A stretch of DNA of 64,000 bases, from NCBI RefSeq assembly GCF_037042905.1, contig NC_087250.1:19842001-19906000 (forward strand), written 5' to 3'. A program made the translations under genes and the position numbers. Origin of the DNA: Lytechinus pictus. Lineage: Eukaryota. The notes under the pieces are model-generated. The model was given only the letters and a program-made list of their open reading frames with translations. It was not told the origin of the DNA and did no database searches. Positions 30,256-59,865 of this stretch are shown in pieces (position 1 is the stretch's first letter; each line of letters begins with the position of its first letter).

Positions 30256-30332
30256 TATTATTATTATTTTTTATTTAAACAAGTGCACATAGCATTTCCA
30301 TTTATTTGAAAGCAGGATAAAAGAGCAATGTA
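30256..30332 (-). mobile_element. 3' half of a tRNA-derived SINE split by the 29.4-kb element
   Basis: ATAGCATTTCCATTTATTTGAAAGCAGGATAAAAGAGCA is the reverse complement of the 3' body of the intact SINE at 62241-62424. Confidence 0.85.
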
Positions 30333-33300
30333 TACACAACAAAAAAAGTAAGCCCCCCCCTTGAACAAACATCAATAATTTCCGAACCAATACGAGTTTT
30401 TGATATATTTTTACATGAGCGTGTAGGTAATTTTATAAGCTACCATCTGAGTAAATGTTATGGATGTATTTTACGTCATGCTTCAGTGAGCACCGTCATA
30501 AGGCAAAAATGTCACTTTTCAAAAGTCACAAGCCAAAAATCATGACTTTGATTCCATTTTATTGGAACTGATTCCACATTCTTATCATGAAAAATAGTCA
30601 GAAGGCTTGTAAAAGGTACTTTCTAAAAGACGATACATTTTTTTGGCTAAATTTCACGGTTGAATAAACACAAGTCCAAATTTGCTATAATTGGATTTTT
30701 ACACATTTTCATCAATAAAAATGATAGAATATGATGACAGTTATTTTGGGGAAGAGTATCTTCAACAATATTCATCGTTTCACGGTTCAATGAACATTTA
30801 TTGAGAAAAAAAATACGGTTTTCAAATATCATAGGCAAGTATTGTTTCATTTTGGGAACTGAAACTGATCTTTTATCAATTTTTTTGTTATGTTCATGAC
30901 CAGTTAACACGCTCCAATGATTCAAAGGCGTTTAATTAAGCATTCACGCTTGAATGAACATGTGGAATGTGATTAGCTCTTTTTTACGTTATTGGAAAAA
31001 ATGCAATTTGTAACTATGGATATCTGTCTCAAACCTCCTTGCATGGTTCATTTGATTTGATTTTTATGAAAATCCCGATGTTTAATGCATCAGTGAGCAC
31101 ACAATATTCGAAAATTATGCAAATGAGAAGAAAGTTCAAGGCCTTGGCCCCACTCTGTGCCGTATCGAATTGTTATTTTGGTGTGCGCACCTTTTGGATA
31201 GTTTTACTCTGAAGCCATGTGCCAAGTTTCATGAAATAACTGTTGGCAGAAGTAACAAAAACCGTTCATGAAACAAACCCCTTATTTCATATTCGTTAAA
31301 AGTTTGACTTCCTCTCTAATAGACTTGTGTACATTATGGGTGCATATGTTTAAAGTATACATCCAAAGAATCAAAAGTATTTTATAATGACTTTATGTGG
31401 TCATCATTGTAAAGGGGAAGTATTACTAATCAGATATATAACTTCACTTTTCAAAATAGTGATCAGAGATTGCAGAAATCAGCTCTCAAAAATGATTTAT
31501 TTTCATGCCATCCCAGGTAACAAGCCAACGTTGGCTCCACGTTGGAAACTTGAAAGTCGTTGGACGTTGGGAAAACTTGATGGATTAACGTTGAATCGAC
31601 GTTGGAAACTAGTTTGATGGAAAGATGATGGACAATCAACAATGACACGACGTTGGCAACGTTGGAAACTTGTTAGTCGGAGAGTTGTTGGACAGTCGAC
31701 AATGTCACAACGTTGGAAACACGTTTGATTGGATAGTTGTTGAACAGCCAGCAAAGGCACAACGTTGGCAACGTTGGAAACTAGTTCGCTGGAAAGTTGT
31801 TGAACAACCGACAGTGGCACAACGTTGACAAAGTTGGAAACTAGTTTGTTGGAGATTTGTTGGACGGTCGACAATGGCACAACGTTGGAGACTAGTAAGT
31901 TGGAGAGTTGTTGGACAGTCGACAATGTCACAACGTTGGAGACACGTTTGATTGGATAGTTGTTGACAGCCAGCAAAGACACAACGTTGGAAACTAGTTC
32001 GCTGGAAAGTTGTTGAACAACCGACAATGGCACAACGTTGACAAAGTTGGAAACTAGTTTGTTGGAGATTTGTTGGACGGTCGACAATGGCACAACGTTG
32101 GAGACTAGTAAGTTGGAGAGTTGTTGGACAGTCGACAATGTCACAACGTTGGAGACACGTTTGATTGGATAGTTGTTGACAGCCAGCAAAGACACAACGT
32201 TGGCAACGTTGGAAACTAGTTCGCTGGAAAGTTGTTGAACAATCAACAATGACACGACGTTGGAAACTTGTTAGTTGGAGAGTTGTTGGACAGTCGACAA
32301 TGGCACAACGATGGAAATTAGTAGGTTGGAGATTAGTTGGATAGTCAACGATGACACAAGGTTGGCAACGTTGGAAACTAGTTCGATGGAAAGTTGTTGA
32401 ACAACCAACTATGGCACAACGTTGTCAAAGCTAGAAACTAGTTCGATGGAGATTTGTTGGATAGTCGACGATGGCACAACGTTGGAAACTGGTAGATTGG
32501 AGATTAGTTAGATAGTATACAATGACACAACGTTGATAAAGCTGGAAACTAGTTAGATGGAAAGTTGTTGAACAACTGACACTGGCACAACGTTGGAAAC
32601 TGGTAGATTGGAGATCAGTAGGATAGTCGACGATGACACAACGTTGGAAAGTTGTTGAACAACAGACAAAGGCACAACATTGGAAACTAGTGTGTTGGAG
32701 ATTTGTTGGACAGCCAACAACGTCACAACGTTGGAAACGCGTGTTTGATTGGATAGGTGTTGAACAGCCAACAAAGGCACAGCGTTGACTACGTCGGAAA
32801 CTAGTTCGATGGAGAGTTGCTGAACAACCGACAAAGGAACAACGTTGGAAACTATTTTCTTGGAGATTTGTTGGACAGTCGACAATGGCACAACGTTGAC
32901 AAAGTTGGAAACTAGTTTGATGGAGAGTTGTTGAACAACGGACAATGGCACAACGTGGACAGCGTAATTGGAATAGTTTATTGGACAGTTAACATTGACA
33001 CAATGTTGGAAACTATAGTTTGTTGGATATTTGTTTGACAGTCAACATAATATCCTGGCATAATATACACAGTGTTGAGAACGTTAGAAACTGGTTCATT
33101 GGAGAATTGATAATTGATAAAGTTGGCGGAGTACAGCAAGTCTGCATATGCCGACTTAACCCAAGACAAGACAAGACTACTGGCATAATTTCCAATGGGG
33201 CCAAGGGGGGGGGGTCGATCAAGTAAGTTTGCTTGTCTATCCATGTCACCCTTGGTATCCCCCAGCAATAAGGGGAAAAGAAATCGAGAGAGAAGGAAAA

Positions 33301-36300
33301 TAATGGGAAGGGAAAGAGGAACTAAAACTAAGTCTAAGGGGAAAACAAAAATAAAGATGGGGTAGAATAGAGAGGCTGCATGCACCTGGGGATGAATGTG
33401 TCGATTAATATAGAAAATAAAGAAGAAAAACAAGAAAAAAAATGTAGTTCAAGACCAGAATTTCCAGAAACGCCCTCGTCGATCCTTTGCAGCTGGCAAG
33501 GCCTTTCACAGTAAGTACGAGATATGTCATAGGCCTACCGTCACATAACTAGAAGAAATTGAAGAAGGAAATACAAGCATCAAATGTGCCTATTTAAAAA
33601 TACCATACTATTCTGATGCGCAGAATTAGTCGCGACGTCGGACTCCTTCTGTCATGTCTGTGTAGTCTGCTTCCTTCAATTTTGAACTTGAAGAATCTGG
33701 CAGAATTTGGACTGGATAGTGGATATAGATAAGTAAATTCCAGAATATCTAGTGATCTGGAACAGTACTTATAACCTGTATATTTAGGACCTACAATCTA
33801 CAGTTGAATTTTCTTTGCACTTGCAGATAATCGGTAACTGCAACCATTGATCCCCTCCGAAAGATCCCGGAGTCAGCTTCTGTGTGCGTACAGTCCGACG
33901 CTATAATATTCGTGTACTGTAAGTAGTAGTAAAGTAGTACTTAACACCAGTCACTGCACAGTATAACATACTAACTAACCTCGTAATTAGCTTGTGTGAG
34001 TGACTAATACTAACCTCGCAATACGTGTGAGTGGGAACGAGTATGCGATACCAATGGCAAGGCAACAGTCATTGGATGATTTTCAAAATTCAAGTACGTA
34101 CAGTGTTGAAATCTGGTGTTGGTGTATACTAATACTAACCTGGCAATACGTGTGAGTGTAACCCAGGGAGCTCCGGCCCGCTGTGCGGGCCGGAGCCCAG
34201 GGGCTTACCGTGTAATTCACAATACCCACGGTAGTAGCGTGAAGTATGGTCTAAATAATTATCCGAATAAATAGTTAAAACAGAAATTAAGCACTTACCA
34301 CGATTATATGGATGAAGGTCTAACGAGTGGCAGCTTCCTGACCCTTACAAAAAATTCCTGTAGTACTCTGTGATATGTACTGCAGGAAGTATCGCAGGAA
34401 AGTACTGCAGGAATTACGTGCACGTAATTTGGGACGGTACTACAGAAATGTACAACAGGAGTACAACAGGTCCGTGTCCTGTGATACTTCCTGTGGTAAT
34501 AACCGCATAAGTATGGCAGGAAGTATGACAGGACACGATCACCACAACCGCTACAACCGCTACAACCACTACCACACTACTATTAGTACTACAGGACAGT
34601 ATCACAGGATAGTATCACAGGATAGTATCACATGATAGTATGACAGGACAGTATGACAGGATAGTATGACAGGACAGTATGACAGGACAGTACTACAGGA
34701 ATACCGCAGACCAGTATCACAGGGAAGTACTACAGAACAGTATCGCAGGACAGTACTACAGGAGTACCGCAGGCTTCTGGTACTGTGTCCTGTAGTACTG
34801 TCCTGTGATACTGGTCTGGTATTCCTGTAGTACTGTCCTGTGATACTGGTCTGGTATTCCTGTAGTACTGTCCTGTGATACTGGTCTGGTATTCCTGTAG
34901 TACTGTCCTGTGATACTGGTCTGGTATTCCTGTAGTACTGTCCTGTGATACTGGTCTGGTATTCCTGTAGTACTGTCCTGTGATACTATCCTGTGGTGAT
35001 AAATAGTATGACAGGACAGTATGACAGGACAGTACTTTAGGAATTCCGCAGACCAGTATCACAGGAAAGTACTACAGAACAGTACTGCAGGAATACCAAG
35101 AGACCTTACCGCAGGACAATTCCTGCAGTACTGTCCTGTGGTATTCCTGTGATACTGATCTTTGATATCTTCTGTGGCATTATTGGTCTCATCCTGCAGC
35201 CTTCTTGTGATACTTTACTGTGGTAATCCTGCAGGGGTATTCTTGTTGATTTCCTGTGACAATCCTATGGTATTGTCCTGTAGTAGTCTGTGCGATTTTC
35301 TCACGACACCGTCCTGCACTGGTTTGTTAGGCGTAGTAGTTTGTAAGAATTTCCTGTGATCCAGCACAACAACTTTGACATCTTGACTAATGAAAAGAGG
35401 CATGAAAAAACCCACAAATTTGCAAAGACGTTAAAAGCATATTCACATACCTTTATTATGTATGAGCTGTACTATGCACAGTATAGAACATCTTTGATAT
35501 CATAAATGACTGCTAGAATAATGCAGTAACATTTCATCTTTAGGATAAGACATGTACAAAGATTTATATCCATGAACATTGAGATGCCACATGAACTACT
35601 TTCACTATTCATACATTGCTGCCATTTTGAGATCACATAAAGAAAGCTAGATTCGACCCAGAATCCTTCCCTCTAACACAACAATAAGCGATTATTATTA
35701 ATACCTTGGTCACATTCCTTGACCGGTTGCCTTACGGCGAGACAAAATCAGCAGTTTTAGGTATTCCTGTACAAACCACCCACGTGTAGCTGGTAGTAGC
35801 TGGTACAAGGATGATTAAGACTGTTAATTTTGACTCGACGTAAGGCCACGAGCCGGCGAATGTAACCAAGGCTTAACCAGTATTATGGTTGCAAAAAAAA
35901 CTGTAATAGCTGGGCAATTGCATTTTCCCCTTCTTGTCAACACCCGATTGGCTTAATACTAAAAGCAGAACATCCTTTACTCAACCATGTTATGAAACAA
36001 TGGATAACCACTTCTGCATGTACAGATAATGCATGGTGCACATACAGTAAGGGATGAAATTATGATGTGTTGATCACCAGTATAAACTTAAAGTACATGA
36101 ACGTAATCATAATCACTTCATTTTGCTCAGAATTCACTTAAGTCCATAAATACTGAAAGATATTTTTGAATGAATTTCACATGATTTAGAACGTTCACCA
36201 TAGGTTAGAAAAAATATGAACATAAGATTACTTTGCCAAAACGTAGATCAAATCTATTGAGACATTAACCTTTTTGACATTGAATAGGCATATCATTTTA

Positions 36301-37276
36301 CACAGTCTTCTTGTCTAAGAATTGCTCCAACTACGTATTGAAGGGTTATATATGAATGTAAGCATGAGCCCATCATAAACACGAAATTGCGGCATGTAAT
36401 TTGATTTGCTACATGTCATAATTGATAACTAAATGACGTTCAATACTTGATGTTGCTACATAAAATAATTAAGGTCATGTGGCAATGTGAATTCATACCT
36501 ACTCGAGTCATTTAGTAATTTCAATTAGTATATGACCTAATTAATTATGACATATAGCTCAAAATTGACTTGAATAATTATGACCAATTTGATTGACCTC
36601 AATTATTTGAAGTAGCAACATCAATTATTTAACATAAGCACTCTCAATCGAGGTGGAGTAACTCTTCTTTAGGTCATGTTACTATTCGAATTGGAACATG
36701 TCATTGTTTAGGTCATGCAGCAATTCAAATTACTTGCTCAAGTAAACAATTACAATTGTAATATCACGCAAAATGAATTAGCTGTACATGACATAATTCT
36801 GTTCTTTGATGGGCTTATGCTTCCATATATTAAGTAAATGGCTTTAATTCTTAATGATTATCCAAAAATTCATATACATAAAATAAACCAATATGAAGAG
36901 CATCATATCCAAAGTGATCACCAGTTCACCCAATGTTACAGTACAAAAATAAAAAGCTGATTTTCTTATGTACTTTCACACATGTTATACATGTGCACTG
37001 TATGTCACTTGACCCTGGCAGACAATAGAATTGACAAGCAGTGAGTCCTACATGTACATGTAGCTGCCTGGTTTGCATACTTTAATGTTATATGAATTTC
37101 AATCATGGCCATGTGCTGTTTATACACTAAATGGAGGGATCTTGTCATAATGTTATGTCAATTAAAAACTGAATAAAATCCCAATTATCCTGAATAGCTA
37201 GACTAGCCCCCTTGCAATGGACATTGTAATCTTGTTTTCTTTTACCTTTCATTATTTTTGAAAATTTTCATACAAC

Positions 37277-38205
37277 TAGGGCTGGGACTAAAACCCGGGT
37301 ACCCGAGTAGAAAAATCAATACCCGATACCCGAAAATTGCTCACCAGTATAATGTACATGTATTTGATTTGTATTGCGTAGTGTAAGACATGATTGTAAC
37401 TCATTACAAAAGTACACAAGCCTCATTTTGAATTTCACCAATTACCCTCTAAATATCCATAAATATACAAGTTTTCAAGTGATGATGATGTGACCGAGAT
37501 CGTTCAATCATCGCCATGTTTCTTTTGCAGCGCAGTGACGTCATCCAGCCACTGCGACGCAAACCAATTTATGAATGAAAATATAGTAAGCATGCGCATT
37601 GCAAGCCTCAGCCCCACGCAGTATTACGTCAAAACAAGTCTGCAATACTCTGTCACCTCATACCAAAATCGACCTACGAAGCACCAGCCAATCACGTTCT
37701 TGTTACCATTTTTAGTTCATCATAAACCGAAAATGGGAACACGATCGTGATTGGCTGGCGCATTTGACGCTCCGAAACCCGGAAATCAATTGACTTTGTT
37801 CACGTAGCGATACAAACTCACGAACACGATGTAATATCGATGCTACTTCGTAAGATTTTGACGGAAAAGCAAGAATAAAAATTTGCTTACCTGTGCAGTA
37901 TCGGTGAGAAAACCTTTTATAATTCATATGATATATAGGAAAGTGGAATTCTAGGTCGATTTTGGTACGAGGTGACAGAGTATTGAAACTTGTTTCGATG
38001 GAATACTGCGTGGGGCACGGGAGGCTTGCAATGCGCATGCTTACTATATTTTCATTCATAAATTGGCTTGCATCGCATTGGCTTGATGACGTCACCTATG
38101 GGGTTTTTCCACCAGTCATATTTCAAGTGACATGATTTTCAGGTACCCACCCGAAAATTACCACGGGTACCCGAAGAGAAAAAAAACCCGAAAGTCCCAG
38201 GCCTA
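37277..38205. mobile_element. hAT-like MITE with 8-bp TSD CATACAAC, containing an internal inverted repeat (about 37535-37675 vs 37950-38095)
   Basis: TIR TAGG(G/C)CTGGGACT; perfect TSD; ACCCG subterminal repeats. Confidence 0.88.
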
Positions 38206-38972
38206 CATACAACTCTTTGTTTTTTTTTATACTTTATCAAAGCTTTTATGATTATAAATGTAATTAAATAATTTGACTTGATAAATGTATATTACTGGTA
38301 TACTAATTGTGAATTTTTAGCAAGAAACAGTATTTGTGTTGGATTAATACATAAAAATGTTGCGAAATTTCGGAACAGCGTACCCAGGCATCACAAATTT
38401 GGTCTCAAAAGATGTGCAAGACTTGAAAGTAAAAAGGCAGCTAACAGCCTCCCAGTTATTAACCCTTAGTTAAATTGGACCAATTTGACCCCCCCCCCCT
38501 TCCAAAAATTTGGCGACCATGCTGTCGCACAATTTTTTTAAAACATGCCTCTTTCTAGTCTTGTGCATCTTTTGAGACCAATCTTGTGTCACCCGGTACG
38601 TGGTTCTGTAATAACGTGACATTATGTAAGTACATGTCATACCAAAAATTGCTAAAAAACGTGATTTTGTGTACAAAGTCAATGCAATAGAGGAAAAAGT
38701 ATGATTTTGTATTCTAATTACGCATAAATTAGTATTATCACTTACTAACAATTTGCGTGAAATAATTTACAATTTAATTTTGTAAATTATGCCCTAGACA
38801 ACCCATGTGCCAATGTTAGACGCGATTGTGCGGTCAAGATCTCAAGGAAGGGGGGGGGCCCTGGAAACCCCCCCTCCCCCCTTCCCCGGCCATATCAACT
38901 CCCAAAATACCCTGGCTTTAGTTGACTTTCTGGCTCCTCTTGAGTAGTCACCATTCATTGGACAGCTTGTTT

Positions 38973-41900
38973 TTATCCAAGTCTGTATAGCACGAGGCAG
39001 CTTAATCTGTAGAAAAAAAAACACATACCATTACGATAACATGAACAACATAAAAATACAAGAAATAAGGTGTTTTGCCCCCATCTAGATCTCTTTTCAC
39101 AAGTACATATCTATCGGATAATGAGGTCCTTGCGGCTATCTCTCTTAGCATATTCTTGCTTATAAAAGCAAACTAAGCCGAAGAGTGACAAACAATTTAT
39201 AATGCAAACAAATTGTCATAAGCACATATTGAAACTCTTTAATAAAACAATGAAGAATAAATCTACATCTTCTAACAAGGATTACACTGTATGCCACTGC
39301 ATGAATACAATCTGCTTAATTTTGTAATTATAATATCTACTGAAGTGAATGCCTATATAATCACCTTTTATGAACTCCAACCGTGTCTTGTACAAGAACA
39401 TGGCCTTTTCTGTGTACACCTGTAGTATCTTTCCCACATAATGCTGGACTTGCTGCTCGATCATCCAGAGATCCCTCTTTGAATCTTTAATGAAATGAAA
39501 TGAATTTGAGTGACATAGTAAAATTTTATTTGCAGGTTAATACAAATACATGATGTAATAAAAATACATGATAAAACTTCTTCATTTCCATATTTCAGTG
39601 TTACAATTCAGGTGCAAAGAGTCATATTCTTTAATAATATTCAACATAAAATCAATGAAAACTAGTGCTGTTGTCGATAGGCCTCATATCGACATTGATG
39701 TCGACATACGAAGGATTTTCAAAATTCCGACATGTCGACATGCACGCACCCACATCGACATGTAAACATAAAATAAAAAGGGGTCTAGCCTACAATCACG
39801 AGTGTAAAGATTAGCTGAAAAGTTAGAAGCATTTATCCACAGTAATTGGCGCGATTAAAAGGTTTATTCAGCTTAGCAGCGCATTAAATGAAAAAAGAAT
39901 ATCTGCGAGCTGTGCGGCAGTAGAAATACGTCAGTGCAGGGCCGGCCTGCCCGATCGAGCCGCCCTCGATATCCCGTTATAGCGAGAGTAGCATTCACCG
40001 TACCCATCCACGGAAATATGTACCCATCGCGCGCTATTCACCGTGCTTGATAATACGTTGCTCCTCAATGCATTACTTTTCACATAAACGTGAGCAGCAG
40101 CGAACACGTGTTTTTGTCAAAGTTGTGACTGCCGCAATTGAGCGCTTACTTCATATCACGAAGTCACAGAAAACTTCCCTTCATTCGTTTGGAGATCGCC
40201 GCGGAAGTGATACTGAAATTATCGGTCGATTTTCATTACTTTTCATTGTCAAATTGAGGAGCTTGCGTTTGCAGCAATGATCACTGTTGTAATTGGTGAT
40301 TCTCAAATTGGCTACGAGTGTTATTGAGCAATGCTTTCGAAACCGGATCCTGGTACAAAAACTTGATTCTCCAGAAAAAAAATGTGGATTAAATCGGTGA
40401 TTTTGGAAGCTCAATTCCCGAACTGAGCCTGTATTATATAGATCTAGTGTGGGGATATCACTCGTGTCAAGGTGAATATATTTGATTGAGAGTGTTGTTC
40501 CACGATCGAATGCTTTTTTTTTATGTTAGGGAGCCCAGGCTAAATTACGGTCCCTTTTTCATGTCGACATTGTCGATGTCGGGATTAATTTTTAAGCGAC
40601 ATGTCGACATGGATTTTTGTTCCCGACAACAGCACTAATGAAAACATTAAAAGTAGAGGAGCATTTTAACCTTACTCACAGTCTGTTATTGTCGCTAAAG
40701 TCTTTACAATAAGAAGATTGGGCACTTTGCCGACATCGCGTAATGCTTTGCATCGATTTACATGTATAATAGTCTTTGTGCCTAGTCTTTTCTATGTAGT
40801 GTCTATAATATGTAGATAAAACATGCGTCCTTTAGCTAGTTAGACGAACAATTTTGGAAATTAAAGACGGATCCATATTTTATCAACCGGAAGAGAAATT
40901 AGTGCTTAAATGAAGCTATTTGAGGGATATTGATGATATTTAGGGTGAATTGACTTCACATCTTTTCGTAAGTTTGTCATGTTCATAGAAGGCCGGACTT
41001 GATTTTATAGAAACCTCTTTTAAATTTGTGGGATTGCCTACCTCGAGTGAAGTTTGTGCAGGCTCCACTCCACTTCACTATTGCTACACTACGCTCCACC
41101 TACCCAAACTTTGAGACCGTGAACTGGATCTGTCGATCTGATATTCCGAGTGACAAAAAGTGGGATCTTATGGGGGGGGATATCAAATTCATGCAACATC
41201 ACGCTCTTTAAAAAAATTAAAACTAATATTCTTCCTGCACACAAAGTTTCAGTTCTTCTCCATGCCTCTATCCGTCTCAAAATTGATGATTTAGAGCCAA
41301 CATGAAGTTTCTCACACGTATCAATATTCAATACATCGCATGAGTGTGAGGTCGGTCGGGTCAGACCAGGCCCGGTATCTCGCGAATATTGCATCCGCAT
41401 GCAATGTTTTGAAATCGGCAGCGAATTATAAATATGTGTGAGGAACTTCATGTTGGCTCTAAATCACCAATTTTGAGACTGATAAAAGCATGGAACTAAA
41501 TGAAACTTTGTGTAAAGTAAGAATATTAGTTTTAATTCTTTTTAAAAATCAAGATGTTGCATGAATTTTATATTCCCCACCCCCATAAAATCCCACCTCT
41601 GTCACTCAGAATATCAGATCGAGTTCATGGTCTCGAAGTTCGCGTCTGTAACGTTGGCGAAGAACAATAGAAAACAAGATGGCGGCGTAAACATCGGGCA
41701 AGTCTCTTCCGTCTAATCATGATATTTTTCGCATTTTTTGGAATGAATTTCTTCTTCAAAAATAACGACGAGAGCGTAGAAATGTTGGAAATTAAGTTTT
41801 ATCCCATGTACATGATTTAGGTCTAACGTTAGGCTAGATCTTTTAGAGGGAAAGTAGAAATCTCGGGGCCGGGGGTGAAAGTTTCAAGTTTTGGCTTCCT

Positions 41901-42479
41901 CTGTGTGGGTATATGAGAAAGGATCCCTGGCTTCATATGAGAGTGACCTTACGAAGTTACGTTAGTAAATGATTTTCACTCTCTAGAAGCCGCCTGGCTA
42001 GGCCTACAGCCATTCCCGATCACGATATTTTGAAAAGTGGTGGATATATTGACTTCAAATGTGACTGAGAGACTTGTCATGACATTTGGGAACAAATATT
42101 GGTGATGAGGTATGCTGGTATTAATCGGCCGGTGCGAAACTGCATTAGCGCCCACCCCTGACCTTGCTACAATCATGACAATACAAACATCCTCACCGCC
42201 GCCATCAATATACTACTAACTTAGCCAGCCGTTGGCCGTCCCCGGCCGCGCACACCGCAGATCAGCCCCCACCCGATAAGCGATCGGGAACAACGGCAGT
42301 GCAGTGGCCGTACGGTAATGATTAAAAAGTCGAAGAAATTTAAGTGCATGCCGCGCCAAACTACGAAAAATGGATCTAACTTACTGTTTAGCCTGTTGTG
42401 TGAATGTCTTAAGAAGTCGTTGTCCGAATCTGATCCATATTCTGTTAGTTTTTGTTGAAATATTGACGGCCTTCTTCAT
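38973..42479 (-). CDS. Candidate four-exon gene of unknown function inside element C: join(42479..42385,40802..40680,39484..39365,39006..38973), 123 aa; may be a pseudogene or non-coding
   Basis: Donors GTAAGT, GTGAGT, GTGATT; acceptors TAG, AAG, CAG; all phase 2; internal exons 123 and 120 nt; YY1-like CCGCCATTT and ETS-like CCGGAA just upstream. No homology recognised. Confidence 0.3.
39663..40637. mobile_element. hAT-like MITE with 8-bp TSD ATGAAAAC
   Basis: TIR TAGTGCTGTTGTCG / CGACAACAGCACTA; perfect TSD; GTCGAC subterminal repeats. Confidence 0.9.
41107..41641. mobile_element. Degenerate foldback MITE
   Basis: About 210-bp imperfect inverted arms, e.g. GATTTAGAGCCAACATGAAGTT / AACTTCATGTTGGCTCTAAATC. 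Confidence 0.7.
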
Positions 42480-46972: not shown

Positions 46973-48008
46973 CAGGGGCGGATCCAGCTTTCGCCAAAAG
47001 GGGGGGCCGAAAAATATTTTCATCAACATTTTTCCCGATTGGCCCCTATAATCTGATTTTTTTCTTGGTTTTTCAGGGGGTAGTCCTAACAATAGACTGA
47101 AGTTTTAAGTATATGTTAGTTTTTATTGTTATAAACAAGATAAGGTATCTCATGTGGTCTTAATATATAATGCGAGCGCGATGTGCGAGCTAAAATTCTT
47201 TGATATTTTATGTCCTTAGAACTGAAGATTCTGAGCATTTTTTATAATCATGAACAAAAATAAGTATCCAACTAAACAATGCGAGCGCGAAGCGCGAGCC
47301 GAAATTTTATTATAGTAACGTGAAAAGGGACTCAATTAGGACTATTTTTAGTGATTAATGAAAAGGATACAAGTATCACCAATTAAATAATGAGAGTGCG
47401 AAGCGCGAGCTCTAAATTTTTGATATTCCGACCTGAAAACTGGACAGTCTAAGCGCCTATTTATTTAAATAAAGAACAAGCTGTGTGTCTCAATAATTTG
47501 TTGGTATACTCACATGATAAAGGAGCATTTTGACAAATTTTGGAAAGAATTTCCAAAGAGGATAGGTATCTCACAAATTAAACAATGCGAACGCGCAGCG
47601 CGAGCTGAAAATTTTGATACAACAATTTGTGTAAATCAAACAAAATAATGAAAGCTTGATGTGCGAGCTAAAATATTGTGTGCAAATTGATTTCAGAACT
47701 GGATATATTAAGTGTCCTTTAATCCTCTTGAATGGGATTCATTACACAGGCAATGCAAACGCGAAGTGCGAGCGAAAGTTTTGATATAAAGTCTATTTTC
47801 CAATTCTTCCCCTCACCTTTTTCTTGTTTCCTTTCGGGGTCGGGCCGGCCGTTACGAGGCTGTAAATTACATGGGTATAATAACCTCTTTCCTACTTTTC
47901 TGTCTGTTTTTCGTAGTTTCTATCAAGTTAAAGAGTACACTTTTCTGCAAGTTGTAAAAAAATAGGGGGGGCCGGGGCCGGCTCGGCCCCCTCCTGGATC
48001 CGCGCCTG
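46973..48008. mobile_element. MITE with 5-bp TSD CCATC
   Basis: TIR CAGG(G/C)GCGGATCCAG; the empty site (a single CCATC) is present in the outer AB copy at about 33356-33360. Confidence 0.92.
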
Positions 48009-51000
48009 CCATCTTTATTTTTGTTTTCCCCTTAGACTTAGTTTTAGTTCCTCTTTCCCTTCCCATTATTTTCCTTCTCTCTCGATTTCTTTTCCCCTTA
48101 TTGCTGGGGGATACCAAGGGTGACATGGATAGACAAGCAAACTTACTTGATCGACCCCCCCCCCTTGGCCCCATTGGAAATTATGCCAGTAGTCTTGTCT
48201 TGTCTTGGGTTAAGTCGGCATATGCATGCAGACTTGCTGTACTCCGCCAACTTTATCAATTATCAATTCTCCAATGAACCAATTTCTAACGTTCTCAACA
48301 CTGTGTATATTATGCCGGGATATTATGTTGACTGTCAAACAAATATCCAACAAACTATAGTTTCCAACATTGTGTCAATGTTAACTGTCCAATAAACTAT
48401 TCCAATTACGCTGTCCATGCACGTTGTGCCATTGTCCGTTGTTCAACAACTCTCCATCAAACTAGTTTCCAACTTTGTCAACGTTGTGCCATTGTCGACT
48501 GTCCAACAAATCTCCAAGAAAATAGTTTCCAACGTTGTTCCTTTGTCGGTTGTTCAGCAACTCTCCATCGAACTAGTTTCCGACGTAGTCAACGCTGTGC
48601 CTTTGTTGGCTGTTCAACACCTATCCAATCAAACACGCGTTTCCAACGTTGTGACGCTGTTGGCTGTCCAACAAATCTCCAACACACTAGTTTCCAATGT
48701 TGTGCCATTGTCTGTTGTTCAACAACTTTCCAACGTTGCCAACGTTGTGTCATCGTCGACTATCCTACTGATCTCCAATCTACCAGTTTCCAACGTTGTG
48801 CCAGTGTCAGTTGTTCAACAACTTTCCATCTAACTAGTTTCCAGCTTTATCAACGTTGTGTCATTGTATACTATCTAACTAATCTCCAATCTACCAGTTT
48901 CCAACGTTGTGCCATCGTCGACTATCCAACAAATCTCCATCGAACTAGTTTCTAGCTTTGACAACGTTGTGCCATAGTTGGTTGTTCAACAACTTTCCAT
49001 CGAACTAGTTTCCAACGTTGCCAACCTTGTGTCATCGTTGACTATCCAACTAATCTCCAACCTACTAATTTCCATCGTTGTGCCATTGTCGACTGTCCAA
49101 CAACTCTCCAACTAACAAGTTTCCAACGTTGCCAACGTCGTGTCATTGTTGATTGTTCAACAACTTTCCAGCGAACTAGTTTCCAACGTTGCCAACGTTG
49201 TGTCTTTGCTGGCTGTCAACAACTATCCAATCAAACGTGTCTCCAACGTTGTGACATTGTCGACTGTCCAACAAATCTCCAACAAACTAGTTTCCAACTT
49301 TGTCAACGTTGTGCCATTGTCGGTTGTTCAACAACTTTCCAGCGAACTAGTTTCCAACGTTGCCAACGTTGTGCCTTTGCTGGCTGTTCAACAACTATCC
49401 AATCAAACGTGTTTCCAACGTTGTGACATTGTCGACTGTCCAACAACTCTCCGACTAACAAGTTTCCAACGTTGCCAACGTCGTGTCATTGTTGATTGTC
49501 CATCATCTTTCCATCAAACTAGTTTCCAACGTCGATTCAACGTTAATCCATCAAGTTTTCCCAACGTCCAACGACTTTCAAGTTTCCAACGTGGAGCCAA
49601 CGTTGGCTTGTTACCTGGGATTCCACCTGTAAAAAATATTGTGAATAGGAGAACAAATATTGAAGTAATTTTATTTATAATAATATATTTGTAAGAAAAT
49701 AGGTCCTTTTTACAAAAAAAAATAAATAAAAAAATAGATGGGAAACTTGGAAAAATGTATTTTCTCGCAATAAAAACTTTAAGGGGCCAGAATCGCATTA
49801 AAACTTGGTTATGAAACGTGTAAAACAAAATCTTAGATAGCATTTTAACTGAGATTTATTTTTTAATCAACATTCAACGCTGAACTTTCTTATGTTAATT
49901 GTTTATCAATATTTTGTGAAAACAGATAGTGTGCACATCGTCATGAATATTCATTTGGTGGGCTGATGATGTGACATTCCCATTTTTCTTTTTTAATGTT
50001 AGATATGAAATTATGATTATCTATTTTTTCAATACATGTGTAAATAATGTGTCCCCATTGTAAAGTTGCTGCATTAAATAACTAATGCGGTTAATTAGTC
50101 GTCATTCCAATTGTTTAAGTTCTTGGTAGAAATATGTTGAATAAATCTAATTTCATATATTGTACAAAAGAACATGGGATATGACATCATCAGCCCACCT
50201 AATGAATATTCATGAGACATGCCTAAATAAAACTGTTTCATGGGAATATTGCAAATCCTTAAAATTCAACTTAACTTCGTTATTTGTCATCCGATTTTGA
50301 ATAAATTTTAAGCATTTTGTTTTGTGAATTTTACTCTATTTATTGATTATCTCTAGCGTTGACCTCCCCTTCAATTATTTTCTTGTATTGTTAGAAAGAG
50401 ATGGATGAAGTAGAATAATACGTTCATGCTTATATTTTTATTCATTACAATATCTCTTTGAAATTCAACCCGGCTTCCTCACAACCATTAAGCTCTAAGA
50501 GTGTTAGGTGTGTCCTGTATATTTCAACACGTACCCTTTTAAATATAGTCATTTTTTTATTATTCATCCTGTTTTTTATGAAAAATAAGTGGCGAACAAA
50601 CAAAACAAAAATGATAATTGAAATTTAAAAGAGCGCATGAAAAAGAAATAACCCTGAAAACGAACAATAGTCCTCAAAATATAAGTTGCCCATTTTGGGG
50701 TCAATAATTTTTCGCATTTTTCAGTTCGCGCTTTGCTCCTAGTTTTGATCTAGTACGTATAGTACCCTTTCTCGTAGAAATAGAAGCTATCAAACTTAAA
50801 ACCTCTGAGTCTCAGTAGGCATAACCCCCCCCCCCCCTCGCTGATATAGACCTACACATATGGGACAGGGTGAAATATAATTTTGAAATAGGGCCTATAT
50901 GTCACAATCTAGCTATCACAAAATTAAATTTTCATATAAAAAATTGTACTTTTTAAAATGAATGGTGCCCTTTTAAGCCATATGGCCTTCTAAAAATATA

Positions 51001-54000
51001 AGACTCAATACGCTACTGACCTCTCCCGAAACTGAAAAAAAAGATAAATCCCTCACTGGAAAAAAAAAAATTAGTCTGTGGTACAAACAGGGCTTCCATA
51101 CAAGTACTGAAGGAAACTAATTTTTTCATGTACTGTACCACAGAAAATACACCAGTAGCGTCTGTGATACAGTTTCAGTCATATTTCTGGGGTGGCTGCA
51201 TGAGAAGTACCGCAGGAAATTTTGAAAGTATAGCACTGGGGTTGCCATAGAATTTTAGAAGTGCCTATATTGAGTCCTGCAGGAAATTTCAAAATTTTCA
51301 TTTACCACAGAAGTATCACAGGGTTTTCATAGAAGTGCTTAGTAATAGGAGTACTGCAGGAAATTTAAAAAATGTTCATATACAACAGAAGTATCGCAGG
51401 GTTGTCATAGAAGTACTGCAGGATATTTTAGAATTTTCATGTACAACAGAAGTACGACATAACTATCACAGAGTGATATTGTATACAGTTATGTACAACA
51501 GAAGTATTACACAGGTACGACAGAGTACCATTAAGGTATTGCATGAAATTTTCATATTTTTACGTACAGAAGTAGAACTATCACAGAGTGATACCACAGG
51601 AGTCCTGTAGTAATTCCTTATACAGTTTTGTACAACAGAAGTATCACACAGGTACGACAGAGTACCATTAAGGTATTGCATGAAATTTTCATATTTTTAT
51701 GTACCACAGAAGTATGACAGAACTATCACAGAGTGATACCACAGAAGTCCTGTTGTAATTCTATATACAGTTTTGTACAACAGCAGTATCACACAGGTAC
51801 GACAGAGTACCATTAAGGTATTGCATGAAATTTTCATATTTTCCTGTACCACAGAAGTATGACAGAACTATCACAGAGTGATACCACAGAAGTCCTGTTG
51901 TAATTCTATATACAGTTTTGTACAACAGAAGTATCACACAGGTACGACAGAGTACCATTAAGGTATTGCAGGAAATTTTCATATTTTCCTGTACCACAGA
52001 AGTATGACAGAACTATCACAGAGTGATACCACAGAAGTCCTGTGGTAATTCTGAGGTACCGTCGTGTATGACAGAAGTATCACACAGGTACAACAGAGTA
52101 CCACTAAAGTACTGCAGGAATTTTTTGTAAGGGGACATCGAGGCACAGACTGGAACCTAAAAAAAACGAAAAGTTCTGTGGCGGTAGCTCTCCTCTTTCA
52201 GAATTCAAAACAAAATGGCCGATTGAGACCGAGACTAATAGCACTAGTGCATTAGTATACATCTCTATGATATAGACTTTGTCAAATTCGCCCATGCGCC
52301 CTACACCCTCGGTACCGGTCTCGAACGGCCATTTTGCTATGAATTCTGAAAGAAGGAGAGCTACCGCGCGACATAACTTTTTCGTTTTTTGAGGTTCCAG
52401 TCTGTGCCTCGATGTCAGGAAGCTGCCAATCGTTAGACCTTCATCCATATAATCGTGGTAAGTGCTTAATTTCTGTTTTAACTATTTATTCGGATAATTA
52501 TTTAGACCTACTTCACGCTACTACCGTGGGTATGGTGAATTACACGGTAAGCCCCTGGGCTCCGGCCCGCTGAGCGGGCCGGAGCTCCCTGGGTTAGTGT
52601 TGGTGTTGTGACAACACCGTACTTGAATCAGGCTGGTGTTAAGATTGACCTCGGAAAATATGGTGTATTTCCGGCAGTTTGTGTTGAAGGCTGGTGTTGA
52701 TTGTCATCTGCTGAACCCAACACTGCACTGTGGCTGCATGGTGTTGATGATCTACAAGCAATTTCCCCATTCAGCAACACCGACGTACCCCAGAGATTGG
52801 GAGAATCGTGATTTAAAGTTCAGTGTTGGTGTTGATGAACTGTAGCTATTACGAACAGGGGGCGAACACGACGAACCATCTCCGTAAAATTATCTTTTAC
52901 ATTTAAGATGAGAGCAAATCATTAGAGTTTTAATACATTTCAATGAAAAATAATATTACGCTTGGTGTTGGAGCTCAGTTCAGCAGCCCTTTCACGCTCT
53001 CAACACCGTACACCGTACTTGAAATCACCCAAATGACTTGCTACCTGGCATTCCTGCCTTATTTATTATACGCTGCCTTGAATTGACTTGGTCGGTCCTG
53101 CCTGGCCTAGCCTGGACCGAGTGTTTTCCAACTGCAGTCAAACCTGTAGTTGCTATGTGAGGCATGCTACACTTGACGCTGAAATATCATTTAATAGTTA
53201 TGGCACGAGCGAGACTAGGCCATGGCCATGCATATTGAGATATCAGTTGACTTCTATCTTAATCAAAAAGAGGCACTCTTTAGTTACAGTAGGCAGTAGC
53301 TACGTTACTCTGAGTGAGGCCAAGTTACGCGACCTCCTTTTTTGATTTTGTAAATACTGAGAGACTGCAATTACACATGTGAGTTTTTGTGATGATTACT
53401 GACGTTGCAATTGGCATTGCATACCGAGTCATTAAACAATTGTAGACAGAAACAGAGATTGCAACTCGCAAGAAAATGTAATACATCTTAATTTTTATTA
53501 CATATGCATATGTTTTTTTGGTATTAGTCTTGTTTGAGAAAAAGAGGATGTCAAAAAAGTTTGAATGCTACAAAGGCCTCAATAAATATCACACGTAATT
53601 ATCTTGATTTCTCTTAATTATGTGAAGAGACTTGTAACAGAAAGAATGAAAAGAAATGAATAGCTGTAATAATAGTTGTAATGTTTTTTGATAGAATCAT
53701 GAACAGATTACAGATGATGATGGCACAGTGTTGAAAACTGTTTGATGGAGATGGCGCATCGTTGGATTTGTTTAGAATTAGACCAACAAAGAATCAACGT
53801 TACAACAACATTTAACCGATATTAGACAAACATTGAATCAACGTTTACGCCAACGTTGGACTAACATTGGACTAAAGTTGAATCAACTTTCCATCAACAT
53901 TGGACCAACATTATACCAACGTTGGATCAACGTCACCCAACGTTGGACCAACATTGGACCAACGCTGCCATACCTGCCTCATCTGGACAATGATTATGCA

Positions 54001-55523
54001 CTCATGAATATTCATTACATCAGTAAATGACCAAAATTTTAGGTAATATTGCTATAATAATTAGAGTATTTATGTTTATTCAATATTTCCACCATGAAAA
54101 GTTTCAGAAAAGTATGTGGCTCCATTACCATATCATATATAATCAAAACATATTATTCTAAGTGAAATATTCAAGGTTAAGTGTGGAAAATGATATTAAC
54201 TGTATTCTGCCAAGTATAGCAAAGTTGCTCTATATATAGGAGTCGATGACAGGTTACAGTGGATAGGTGTAGGATGATAGGAATAGGATATAGGATTAGG
54301 ATGTAGGATTTTAGGATAGGATAAGACATATGATGATAAAGATTTGAGTGTAGAGTTGTAATGGTGGACTTCACCTTGAAACCAATTAATGTTTTGTTAA
54401 TTACTGCCATACGTTGGAATAACGTTGGAGCAATGTTGGAGCAACGTTGTGACAACGTTGTAACAATGTTGGAGCAATGTTGCCAGACAACGTTGGAGCA
54501 TTGTTGCTGGACAGCGTTGAACCAACGTTGTAAACATAGTTGGACTGACGATGTATGCAAGTGCACGTCCATCGCTGCTTCAACGTTGCCCATCAACGTT
54601 GCAGCAACGCTGTTATTGATGACTCAGCCGACATTATACCAACGTTGGAGCATTGATGGTGGACAACGTTGAACTGACGTTGGAAATGTTGTTGGTCTGA
54701 CGATGTATGGACGTGCACTTCTATCGATGATACAACGTTGCTTACCAACGTTGTAGCAATGTTGTATTTGACTATTTAGCCAACATTGGATCAACGTTGC
54801 CAGACAACGTTGAAACATTGTTGCTGGACAACGTTGAACTAACGTTGGAAATGTTGTTGGTCTGACGATGTATGCGCGTGCACTTCTATCGATGATGCAA
54901 CGTTGGCCTGCCAACGTTGAGGCAACGTTGGGAAAAAAATTCCCAACGTTGATCCAACGTTGGTCCAACGCTGTATTGTTACCTGGGATATTTCTGCCTT
55001 CCACCGGTCCTCTTGCGAGCTCCAGCTGAGTGACGTCACACAATGAGCAGTGAGCAGCTGAGCTGACAGCAGCCCATTGGAGACGATCTTTCCAATCAGC
55101 GTTTTTTGCTCTTAGAATTGTTTATTCCTCTTAAGATTGGTCTTGTTATATAGATAAAAGTTTGAATTTACTGAACAGTGAAAAAAGTGCACATTTAACG
55201 TATTTTGGTGACCGATATTTAGCTTAGAATTTTTTTTTTTTTTCAAGAAATATAGGTGAATAAACAAAGCATATTTTCACGTAGAAATCACACTTGCGTC
55301 ACATTAATGTTATAGTCAATATAAAGCATAGACATTCTTCTTTATGACTGAACAAAAATTATGAAATTTCATTAAGTAGCAAAGTCAGGAATCACAAAAA
55401 AAACACGGCAATATCCATCGCGAAATGACTGAAATTGCAGTTGAATTGCCGAAGCATTATTAGGAAACAGCGGCGAGCGGACTTTCTTTCATATATCTTA
55501 AAAATGCCTTCCTGTTAGGGCGA

Positions 55524-55599
55524 TGGTCTGTGGCCAAATGCGTTGGCCATTGTTTGGTCATGTGCGAGGACCCTGGTTCGAAACTCGGATTTTTTTTTT
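55524..55599 (+). pseudogene. Degenerate tRNA-like Pol III unit
   Basis: A box TGGCCAAATGCG (55531), B-box-like GGTTCGAAACT (55575) at tRNA spacing, followed by T10; stems are poorly paired. Confidence 0.35.
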
Positions 55600-57078
55600 C
55601 TGGGTATTTTTTTTTTATTCCTTCCCCGTCCCTACCCATCTTTTTTTTCTCTTTTTATTTTCTTGTGAAATTCTATTCAGACCTGTATTTATCAAATCTT
55701 GCTTCTTAATTGCTGCTTTTGATTTTCAAGTTCTTGATTAGATTATTTCTACTCTTATTTGGGATGGGAGGGGTAGAGTTAAAAGTCAAGTCCACATCAA
55801 CTAAAAATTATTTGAATAGAGTGATTTCCCTTGTTGTTTTTACTCAAAACAGTCATATACACAAAACAATGATATGCAAATTAGAGTTGTCACTCACATC
55901 ACATTCGTTTCTATTTTTTGTGGCATTTTGTTTTTTATTCTTTGCAGATTTGACGATAGGAAACTCTTCATCTGATCACAATAGGTTATATTTACGGAAC
56001 TGTTAAATAGTAATTATATAAATTTGAATCAAAGTTTTTATGAAATTTCCTGCAATATCTTGTTATTTTTCTTTAAATTCAAATGAATTTTTGATTGCGT
56101 GGACTTCTCCTTTACTCTTAATGTAGGGAATGCATAGCAAAATTTATCCAGAAACAAAATTGTCTTAGAATATGCAAATCAGTAATTGGACACATGTTCA
56201 CTTTTCTTTCATCCAGGCCACTTCCTCACATCCACCAGGCTTTCAGTCTGATGATGAACCATCACACAACATTCACAGTGCTTCACAATAAATATTTCAC
56301 TTCTGTTCATACATGCAATAAATATTGTGGAAAACAAATAAAAGGCGTACCCATATTCAAATACCGTTTAAAAGGACAAATATATTATACCTTTCGAGAA
56401 AAATCAGCACGTTAAATATCTGATAACAAAACATAATTATGGGGCACTGCAAGAAACTTATGTTCAATTGCAAATCAAGCGTAAGTCTTAAATTCAAATT
56501 TAAGCGTAATAAGGTCGAGTTGCAATCGCAATTCAACTACATGTTTAATCAAAGGACTTTCCCTTGATTTGGGACGTGTGATTGAGTATAACATTTCTCG
56601 CAAAATGCCCTAGTAACATTAAAATTGTTCTTTCGTTTTAAATTGTGTGTTATTATTTTTGACAAGCTGTATTCCTGTCCGAGTAAAATTTCTTAGTTCT
56701 CTCCAAAACTGTGCTCAAAATTGTTTCCAAGATTGATAAAGAAATTTTTTCTTTTGTATCATTATCATTCCACAACTTGCAAACCGTAGGTCCTGGAAAG
56801 AGTGAAGAAAAAAATGGCTATATCCAAATCATAGTAAAAGGACATGATGGAATCTCCCAGATTGAGGTAGCAAGCAGAGACCAGAAGTCACCAGAGTTAG
56901 CAATTGTGCAGATCTGTGTGTAGAAGAGAGAAAAAAAGAAATAGTTTAAATAATCAAATCAAAGTATGAATTTAATTATCGTGATGATTGATGACGTGCG
57001 GTGGCATGTAATTCCCGGTCAACAACAAATGATAGTAGGTTTAGACACCTGAAAAGTTCCACTCAGAACACTGGTGCT

Positions 57079-57237
57079 CTACCTCAAGTGATGTTTGTGT
57101 AGGCCCCACTCCACTTCACTACCGCTACACTACCGTACATGTACGCCACACCTACCCGGGTAAGTGTGTAGCGTAGTGTAGGCTGTAGCAGTACTCCAGT
57201 AGTGAAGTGGAGACTACACGAACATCACTTGAGGTAC
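57079..57237. mobile_element. Small hairpin MITE
   Basis: TACCTCAAGTGATGTT ... AACATCACTTGAGGTA; a half copy lies at about 41040-41105. Confidence 0.7.
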
Positions 57238-57360
57238 GGTGCTCTCTGAGTCTCTGTGTCATTACAAAGATTGCATTTATCTTCATTGTTGAAGGCATTA
57301 CGCATACATATATGCAGCAACACTCTAATCAGAAAGAAACACCAGACTCTAATTTTGGCC

Positions 57361-57560
57361 CACCCAAGGGTTCATTACATGCCGCCGCGCACAGAAAATT
57401 CAAGCAATAGAAGTCGTGGACCCAAGAAGTGAGATCCCAGCACGCGCGACCCACTAGTTAGAAATCCACTGCCAAACGCGGTTCGTGGTTAGTATACTAA
57501 TACTAACCTTGCAATACGTACTAGTAGTATACTAATACTAACCTCGCAATACGTGTGAGT
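57361..57560 (-). mobile_element. Copy of the TIR-less element with 10-bp TSD AATTTTGGCC
   Basis: Perfect direct repeats at 57351-57360 and 57561-57570. Confidence 0.8.
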
Positions 57561-57787
57561 AATTTTGGCCAGGAATCAGGGTAATCACTGCTGAAAATTT
57601 GTCTGGCTTCATGACATCGGCATCATGGTGATATAATTCTGTGTATAATAAAAACTTAAACATTCCTCTGAAACAGCAGATTTTCAGCCATGGTCCATAC
57701 CACTCAGTGCTCCTAAATAATTTAATTGCCTGCCTGAGTCCTGACCAGTTTTAGAAATCTGAAGAAAAAATCTGCTGGAATTGTGCC

Positions 57788-57974
57788 ACTCACACGTATT
57801 AAGTATACTAACCCCGCACCACGAACCGCGTTTGGCAGTGGATTTCTAACTAGTGGTTCGCGCGTGCTTAGCCTGGAGGCGTCTGGGATCTCACTTCTTG
57901 GGTCCACAACACACGACTTCTATGGCTTGATTTTTCTGTGCGTGGCGGCATGTAATGAACCCTTGCCTTGGGTG
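57788..57974 (+). mobile_element. Copy of the TIR-less element; TSD GAATTGTGCC / GAATTGTACA
   Basis: Same termini as the other copies; 8/10 flanking match. Confidence 0.7.
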
Positions 57975-59231
57975 GAATTGTACAAAAACATTATTTCTAA
58001 AATAAAAACTTTTTAATTTTAATAGTAGTTATGCCAAAATGCATGATTCTAAACTTATATCAGATCTGTATCTGTCATCTGACCTGAATGCATCGTCAGA
58101 ACAAGTACAGTTTCCAAACATGCTTACCTTGACTTTTGACTGGATCAAACAGCGTAGCCTGCAACATGCATCGGGAGCAAGTGAATGGGACCGTGCAGCT
58201 TGGAGTTTTTCAATAGTTAGTAGAGCAACACAACGAAGACTGTCGAGTGGACAAAATCGATCTTTCCAGTTCACAATTCAATAAAAAAACGGGCAAAATA
58301 ACACAGTTCTGGTTCCCTTATAGTCTGAAGTTGTCGAAAACAGAATTCGGATGTCACATTACATGAAGAAAACGGTAAATTCGGAAGATATTGAAGAGGT
58401 CAGTAAGGTGATTCAGTGTATTATGCACAGAGGGATGATGAGCTCGATTATTGTGTGACGTCATTATTCTCGACTGTTTTCACTGCGTGAACTGTCGGTC
58501 TGGGGGGCGGCTGGGGGGCTTAGAATGGTCTCTAATAATTTCATTTCTTGCATTTCCACGACATCGATAAGACTTTTTAGTGACATATTTGTGTATAAAA
58601 AGACAAGACCTTTCCATTCATATATAATTTGTCTATAATCATCACTTTCGTGAATTTTCTTTGTGTGTATACTTTAAGAATAAGTAATCCCTTATTCAAT
58701 ATGGTGGAACTTTTTTTCAAGGCTGTCTTTAGCAATGTCATTTGGCAGTAACGTTTATCAACCTATGGGCAGAATTCTGTGCAAAAATGAAATCGATTTG
58801 TTTATTTACGGATGAGTGAGCACGCATCAAAGTGGGAAAATTGGTATTTTCAATGTCACAGACTCATTTTAAAGGGTAATAAGGTGAATATTGGGGGCAA
58901 ATTCGGTTTCAAATGTGACTTTAATTGCTGTTGTTTTTATCATCCATCATTTCTATCTCCACAGACTTTCCGAACTTTAAACATTTTCATGGTTGAGCGA
59001 GCACATTCGAAAACTTAGGAATGAATACTCTTTATACTGCATAAATGTATTCTGTTTCTAACAATTTCTCATGATCAGTTTAATTTATGGACAAATCAGT
59101 GGTGGATCCAGAATTTAAAAATGGGGGAGGGGTTTATAATCGGGGGAGCCACCAACATTTTCAAATTTTAATATGACCTAACAAGTTGTAGAGGATACTA
59201 CCAAAAACCCCTATGATGATACGTCACAATA

Positions 59232-59400
59232 CAGGGGCCGCGGAACGGTTTTCAAAGTGTGTGGGAGGGGCTGAGCCAAAAGTGGGGGGGGGGGTGGGGG
59301 CTGACCATGCAAACAAATTACAATCGTATGGTAATTTTTATACTTTTGTACATGCTTTTGGAAAAAAAAGTGGGCCCCCACCCCGCTTCCGCGGCCCCTG
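59232..59400. mobile_element. 169-bp MITE with a probable 5-bp TSD
   Basis: TIR CAGGGGCCGCGGAA; flanks CAATA / CGATA. Confidence 0.75.
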
Positions 59401-59747
59401 CGATATTGTGCTCACTCAACCATGAACATACGATATCAAAATTGTGTGTGGAGTGGCTAAATGATGGATAGTAAAACAGCATAACACCATAAAATTCACC
59501 TAAAAACAACTTTTGCCCAACTTTGTATTTGCACAATCTGAAAAACGACTCTTGTGACTTTAAAAAACTGTCATTTTTAATTCAATCTTTAATTACTCAT
59601 GCATGACTCAACCGATCAATCTCCTTTTGCCCCGGGTGTTGCTTAATGAGTATAGAAAACCACCTACGAAATATCATATCTCAAAATAACTCGGTTCAAA
59701 AGTTACAGCAATTTGATTTAGGGGGGACTTACTTTTTTTGTTGTGTA

Positions 59748-59853
59748 TAGATGAAATGCCTTGCTCACGGTCATAAGTGCCGCGGCCGGGGATCGAACCC
59801 CGGACTTTCCATGTAAAGCCAGGCGCCTTAGACCACTCGACCACGGCACCTCC
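59748..59853 (-). mobile_element. 5' (tRNA-like) half of the split SINE
   Basis: Reverse complement of 62242-62347 with A and B boxes; stops exactly at the TA next to the TIR. Confidence 0.85.
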
Positions 59854-59865
59854 ATCATCATCTTT

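Follow-up and report, generated by a model that had tools for sequence, protein, structure and literature searches.

A nest of seven non-coding mobile elements in the genome of Lytechinus pictus

Positions 30256 to 59853 of a 64,000-nucleotide stretch of Lytechinus pictus DNA (contig NC_087250.1, positions 19,842,001 to 19,906,000, forward strand; hereafter the window, whose numbering we use unless another contig is named) are a real nest of non-coding mobile elements, inserted one inside another over 29.6 kb. From the outside inward these are a short interspersed element (SINE), element T flanked by TA, element D flanked by TTAA, element AB flanked by AT and carrying the foldback element FB, element C flanked by GA, a second AB copy (AB') flanked by AT, and a MITE (miniature inverted-repeat transposable element) flanked by CCATC. 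Each of the six inserts is bounded by its own termini and by a target-site duplication (TSD), namely TA, TTAA, AT, GA, AT, and CCATC. The lengths close to the base: the SINE (181 bp), T (2,091 bp), D (3,842 bp), AB with FB (5,682 bp), C (11,644 bp), AB' (5,105 bp), and the MITE (1,036 bp) make 29,581 bp, and with 17 duplicated target bases they give 29,598 bp, which is the whole interval. We consider it highly probable that this interval grew from an old SINE copy by six cut-and-paste insertions, one after another.

Layers, empty sites and order of insertion

Boundaries were placed by self-comparison of the window (G+C about 30-48%) and by direct reading of 14 junctions. Family copies were searched for in the 811.7-Mb assembly (368 contigs), and the family-level tests of TSDs, empty sites, and FB junctions were made on samples of copies fetched from it. 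A first-pass annotation of the window had listed seven layers, with FB as one of them and AB lying directly inside T. Its seven boundary pairs were each exact to the base, and the same positions are where the similarity of genomic copies starts or stops, exactly or within a few bases. Nesting by successive insertion held for every layer. The list was not complete, as it overlooked D, a 3,842-bp TTAA-flanked element that lies between T and AB, and FB is not a separate layer at this locus. The claim that the layers can be resolved by TSD or empty site was borne out, as every insertion has an empty site, in some cases within the window and in others among its genomic paralogues, and removal of the layers in silico restored the host element for each insertion. 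The parts of the nest, with their terminal inverted repeats (TIRs), are the following.

30256 to 30332, reverse strand: SINE, 3' part with the A/T-rich tail; matches the intact copy at 62351-62394; TA target copy at 30331-30332
30333 to 31353, forward strand: T, left part, TIR TACACAACAAAAAAAGTAAG; TTAA target at 31350-31353; genomic copies end here
31354 to 31511, forward strand: D, left part, TIR AGTATACATCCAAAGAA; AT target at 31510-31511
31512 to 34160, forward strand: outer AB, A side, 12-bp TIR CCCAGGTAACAA; AT on both sides of AB
34161 to 34341, no strand assigned: FB, outer part of the left arm; TA at 34159-34160, GA target at 34340-34341
34342 to 43473, forward strand: C, left part, TIR CCCTTACAAAAAATTCCTG; AT target at 43472-43473
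43474 to 46972, reverse strand: AB', B side, plus FB in shortened form (45870-46022) and some of the A side; CCATC target at 46968-46972
46973 to 48008, no strand assigned: MITE, 1,036 bp, TIR CAGGSGCGGATCCAG; CCATC on both sides
48014 to 49619, reverse strand: AB', rest of the A side; duplicated CCATC at 48009-48013
49622 to 52133, forward strand: C, right part; duplicated AT at 49620-49621
52136 to 52594, no strand assigned: rest of FB, with the inner part of the left arm, the loop, and the right arm; second copy of GA at 52134-52135, TA at 52595-52596
52597 to 54987, forward strand: outer AB, B side; 99.6% identical to 43471-45928, inverted
54990 to 58673, forward strand: D, right part; duplicated AT at 54988-54989
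58678 to 59747, forward strand: T, right part; duplicated TTAA at 58674-58677
59750 to 59853, reverse strand: SINE, 5' part; 93% identical to 62242-62347; duplicated TA at 59748-59749

Insertion would have begun with the entry of T (about 2.09 kb) into the SINE, duplicating TA. D (3.84 kb) would then have landed in a TTAA of T, and AB (5.68 kb), with the 640-bp FB already aboard, in an AT of D. Next, C (11.64 kb) would have entered the left arm of FB, duplicating GA, and the second AB copy, AB', would have gone in the opposite orientation into an AT of C. Finally, the MITE (1.04 kb) would have entered AB', duplicating CCATC. In this sequence, each newcomer would have landed in the element that had arrived just before it. 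The order AB-in-C-in-AB shows that the activity periods of AB and C overlapped. None of the 118 stop-to-stop open reading frames (ORFs) of at least 60 amino acids across the nest holds a Pfam transposase domain (three weak matches were to unrelated families), and therefore all elements of the nest are non-autonomous. Because the nest encodes no transposase, the enzyme for each insertion would have been supplied in trans.

The SINE is present in two copies in the window. When T and one TA were removed, the restored SINE was identical to the intact copy at 62225-62410 (reverse strand) in 162 of 180 positions, with TA present once, as the first-pass annotation had expected. Inspection of the sequence suggests a tRNA-like head with the pol III boxes A and B, which is our assumption; ARAGORN found 0 tRNA genes, and Rfam gave no tRNA match at E values up to 0.1. 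For T, the left part is similar to 39 genomic places at 92-97% identity, and this similarity stops at window position 31353 and not at 31511. The two halves of T are contiguous across a single TTAA in all 11 fetched T copies, which is the empty site for D. TA adjoins the TACACAAC ends of T at 11 of 11 left ends and at all 7 right ends found. By sequence identity, T is the oldest family in the nest, and the identity of its paralogues, lower than that of D, AB, and C (about 99-100%), fits the nesting order for the outermost element. By their TA target duplications, T and FB may both be Tc1/mariner-like.

D, whose ends are AGTATACAYMCAAAGAA, is a young and numerous family. The stretch 54988-58677, which holds its right part, is found in 35 genomic places at about 99-100% identity, and identity was again 99.5-100% in 11 of 11 aligned copies. 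The segments 31350-31511 and 54988-58677 are contiguous in all 11 fetched D copies, with a 2-bp overlap in which AT is present once, and these copies therefore show the empty site for the outer AB. All 11 are flanked by TTAA, measure 3,840-3,847 bp, and start with AG at both ends. Exact D-type termini number 359 genome-wide (about 180 element-equivalents), and the modal spacing of pairs is 3.85 kb. D-type termini also occur in pairs 5.3-12.6 kb apart, which may be further nests or longer, possibly autonomous, relatives, and genome-wide there are also D-like pairs whose two ends are of one and the same variant. A TTAA target is common to D and piggyBac, and piggyBac ends are CCC...GGG; we set piggyBac aside solely on these ends. 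The ends of D are instead suggestive of a Kolobok-like element, with a TTAA target and AG termini. According to the account of the superfamily in PMC6004289, Kolobok elements target TTAA and have purine-purine (RR, AG) terminal bases. These features are shared by D and non-autonomous Kolobok elements such as the Xenopus T2-MITE; D itself has no ORF that matches a Pfam transposase.

The innermost layer, the MITE, has 34 near-full-length genomic copies at 85-99% identity with the same ends (CAGGG or TAGGG), two of them at 98-99%. All eight fetched copies carry 5-bp duplications of varied sequence. The first-pass annotation had pointed to an empty CCATC site in the window, and AB' without the MITE and one CCATC indeed matches the outer AB, which has a single CCATC there, in 137 of 137 positions. 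Elements of the hAT superfamily have YARNG ends and duplicate a set number of target bases, in most cases 8 bp, and Repbase naming includes groups that duplicate 5 bp. By its ends and its 5-bp duplication, the MITE may be hAT-like. Recent activity, which had also been proposed, is supported by the near-identity of the D, AB, and C families over dozens to hundreds of copies and by the two closest MITE copies. Within 46500-60000, contigs of a sequencing run labelled as another organism matched the parts that belong to the MITE, D, and T with at least 97% identity and very high word depth, and they hardly matched parts of C. A close relative may have the MITE, D, and T families as well, and contig depth is a poor measure of this.

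A stack of this kind could also be an assembly artefact, in which near-identical repeats (the two AB copies and the many D and C copies) were mis-joined. The families concerned are numerous and 99-100% identical, which is where assemblers err, the short contigs of public read runs contain no locus-specific bridges, and there is no second haplotig of the right flank for comparison, as positions 59750-60950 matched only themselves at high identity when the assembly was searched for an alternative allele. However, matched duplications flank each of the six inserts, every host element is exactly whole again once its insert is taken out, and the lengths add up to the last base. In addition, the two AB copies can be told apart by private features, which are the MITE, the shorter FB of one copy, a piece of 152 bp, and the lengths of their arrays, and chimeric joins would not yield these. 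We therefore regard an artefact as very improbable and a true nest as the reading to keep.

Some observations do weigh against our account of the nest and its elements. The short contigs of four public runs, compared with 46500-60000, gave no locus-specific junction bridges, only family-level empty-site forms, and stretches to which no contig matched carry no information; a joint that skips the MITE (46967 to 48009) was present in three of the four runs, and loose ends at 54988 and 58673 read as uninterrupted D and T sequence. Matching 2-bp flanks are missing in 1 of 14 AB end pairs and in 2 of 10 C end pairs. Five of 29 AB loci show no A-side FB junction in the fetched stretch; one of these is the outer AB of the window, which is interrupted by C. 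The class assignments of the nest elements draw only on end features, and the CCC...GGG ends of AB and C fail the CAC...GTG rule as it is given for Chapaev and animal CACTA elements (PMC4079192, PMC6004678).

The first-pass annotation had further suggested that the outer elements could move the whole composite of about 29 kb if a transposase acts in trans, a mobility that is hypothetical. No second copy of the composite was seen, as across the composite junctions only the window itself matched (queries T, D, C left, and C right). A mobile unit of 27 kb bounded by D is conceivable, D being young and having intact ends.

The AB family, its FB passenger and element C

The A side of AB contains an array of about 1.4 kb of units of about 51-60 bp that carry CAACGTTGG. 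Of the 70 sites of this motif in the window, none falls outside the two AB copies, and they extend into the terminal 120 bp or so at either end. The B half is found in 35 genomic places at 96-100% identity, with similarity starting at query positions 92-101 (the predicted end is 101), and exact 27-mers of the A end occur 168 times genome-wide. Matching 2-bp flanks were present in 13 of the 14 copies for which both ends were fetched, and their 3-bp flanks mismatch. The duplicated sequences were TA (six times), AT and TG (twice each), CT, GA, and TC. Two AB copies have their ends about 24.5 kb (contig C9) and 16 kb (contig C11) apart, with large inserts and matching TSDs (TA and TG, respectively). 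The 152-bp piece mentioned above (46060-46211) is flanked by TA, is present in AB' and not in the outer AB, and occurs in some genomic AB copies only. It resembles one arm of another foldback, located in D (57361-57965, ends CACCCAAGGGTTCATTACATGCC).

FB is interrupted by C in the outer AB. When C and one GA were removed, the arm was restored, as had been claimed, and FB became a 640-bp near-perfect hairpin with a folding energy of -331.7 kcal/mol (DNA parameters); in the opposite arm this site is uninterrupted and has a single GA. AB' carries FB at the same site and with the same flanks, shortened to 61 + 8 + 88 bases. In the fetched AB copies, the B-side FB junction was found in 29 of 29 and both junctions lie within the fetched stretch in 24. 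Between the junction markers, 18 of these copies have 626-653 bp and the other 6 have 409-477 bp. Because the site is identical in both window copies and in the 29 fetched AB copies, FB was inherited with AB, and it arrived at this locus inside AB and not by an insertion event of its own.

The layer list of the first-pass annotation implied instead that FB inserted locally into AB after AB had arrived. FB is indeed flanked by TA at either end, has inverted termini of its own, and is an independent family with most of its termini outside AB. This explanation is nevertheless hardly credible, as AB' holds FB at the identical site with identical flanks, the junctions recur throughout the fetched copies, and no AB copy that was scored lacks FB. 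We thus keep to FB as a passenger of AB.

Exact FB termini (TA plus 18 terminal bases) number 495 genome-wide, a count that required TA and so includes only termini next to it. The AB left flank is carried by 57 of these 495, the pattern capturing left and not right junctions. In the 29 AB loci, 21 exact junctions were seen on the left and 26 on the right; scaling by these gives about 128 termini borne by AB, and on contig C1 only 4 of 35 FB termini lie within AB copies. On these counts, FB is an independent TA-flanked family with about three quarters of its termini outside AB. An FB copy likely entered the progenitor of AB, and AB was then amplified while carrying it. A comparable case is the rice Mutator-like element (MULE) family Os0548, which according to PMC3903597 kept transposing with a nested Tourist-like MITE; in many copies described there, the MITE is found at one fixed position, either whole or in part. 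AB likewise carries its passenger at a fixed site, either in full (about 640 bp) or shortened (409-477 bp). The rice family differs from AB in that it belongs to another superfamily, and AB is non-coding and has a long hairpin as its passenger.

C is flanked by GA at 34342 and 52133. Its left part is found in 14 genomic places at 99% identity, starting at 34342, and for its right part there are 39 matching places with identities of 90-98%. In 11 C paralogues the two parts lie side by side, their coordinates overlapping by six bases; we take this overlap to be AT, present once, and four more bases that match by chance. These copies show the empty site for AB'. Exact C termini number 155 genome-wide (about 78 element-equivalents of 11.6 kb each), and the modal spacing of paired ends is about 11.7 kb. 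The 2-bp flanks matched in 8 of 10 copies (TG, TA twice, AG twice, AA, CA, and CC). All 20 CTG[TC]AGTAC sites in the window fall in C, within about 800 bp of its ends. C-type termini also occur in pairs 13-28 kb apart, which may be nests or longer, possibly autonomous, relatives.

An inverted pair of AB copies around a stretch of C could also result from an inverted duplication, or from recombination between AB copies, without a second transposition into C. The B halves are indeed inverted and 99.6% identical, but AB' has complete ends and its own AT duplication inside C, the site is uninterrupted in the 11 paralogous C copies, and the 2-bp duplication rule holds for AB copies elsewhere (13 of 14). 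We give such a rearrangement next to no credence, and a second transposition of AB, into C, is the explanation that we retain.

A second, independent nest in which AB holds C is located on contig C8 (about 18480517-18494978). There, the A end of AB is at 18480517, the C termini, flanked by duplicated CA, are at 18483177 and 18494921, and the left junction between AB and FB runs from 18494954. C thus lies a few tens of bases outside FB on contig C8, and in the window it lies 181 bases inside FB. C may have a target preference for the FB region of AB, and this putative preference is based on these two independent landings, in the window and on contig C8.

Class of AB and C

AB and C have in common CCC...GGG ends, short terminal inverted repeats, variable 2-bp duplications, and subterminal copies of a motif. 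CACTA elements also have subterminal repeats. By these end features, AB and C may be similar in mechanism to CACTA elements or, more broadly, to the CMC (Chapaev-Mirage-CACTA) group. As the group is described, it shares with AB and C a short duplication (the criterion is 2-4 bp, and AB and C have 2 bp), short inverted ends, and subterminal motif copies. For ENS1_Cis, an animal CACTA element, and for MITEs related to it, duplications of 2 bp are on record (PMC6004678). The difference lies in the terminal bases, as CAC...GTG termini, called invariable for Chapaev and animal CACTA elements in the accounts given in PMC4079192 and PMC6004678, stand against CCC...GGG in AB and C. A DDE transposase with residues specific to the group is a further mark of CMC elements, and the ORFs of the nest yielded no transposase domain.

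ISL2EU of the PHIS superfamily was considered as another candidate. In the description given in PMC4482050, these elements duplicate AT in an A|AT|T target and have ends that usually start with GG. AB and C share the 2-bp duplication, and by coincidence AT flanks each of the two AB copies in the window. Against this description, the duplications of AB and C vary (TA, AT, CT, GA, TG, TC, AG, AA, CA, and CC) and their ends start with CCC. We have filed AB and C in neither CMC nor ISL2EU because the CAC...GTG rule and the AT-only and GG rules fail. A Helitron was rejected for AB on its inverted ends and its duplicated dinucleotide.

AB and C thus fit none of the published end rules of the 2-bp-duplication superfamilies in the descriptions that we compared. 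It is possible, if rather doubtful, that AB and C together represent an undescribed cut-and-paste lineage that is still active here, and that C prefers the FB region of AB. The hallmarks of this putative lineage would be the variable 2-bp duplication, the CCC...GGG termini, and CACTA-like subterminal repeats. Its novelty was judged against literature on 2-bp-duplication superfamilies, on Kolobok and piggyBac, and on nesting, with no search by family name.

Related nests and the neighbourhood

Nested transposons are common enough for dedicated software to exist, such as TEnest, REANNOTATE, and TE-greedy-nester (as discussed in PMC7755421). With the 'Russian doll' nests described from maize, the present nest shares that the order of insertion can be read from the nesting. 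It differs in its content, as the published nests that we compared consist mainly of plant long terminal repeat (LTR) retrotransposons, whereas here non-autonomous DNA transposons and a SINE make up a nest in an animal genome, with all six duplications intact and the lengths closing to the base. The nest is an ordinary kind of structure, nesting is routine, and no open question is changed by it. What the locus offers is an unusually clean worked example for ordering and dating transposon activity, in which every insertion can be checked against an empty site. Moreover, the large, near-identical, non-coding families D, AB, and C indicate that active transposase sources should exist in the genome.

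In the rest of the window, no transposase was found among 55 ORFs compared with Pfam, whose matches were an EF-hand exon and, below threshold, zf-RVT. Rfam gave only sub-threshold hairpin matches. The EF-hand ORF (17465-17737, forward strand, E value 4e-11) is a clear match and probably an exon of a host gene that lies upstream of the nest by about 12.5 kb. Immediately downstream of the SINE, positions 60478-60905 belong to an older dispersed repeat, found in 40 genomic places with identities of about 77-84%. On the other side, immediately upstream of the nest at 23053-29607, a 3.19-kb unit is repeated in tandem with 99.7% identity. This unit contains long arrays of short units that are about 90% alike, and it shows a very strong skew of G over C (up to 0.82).

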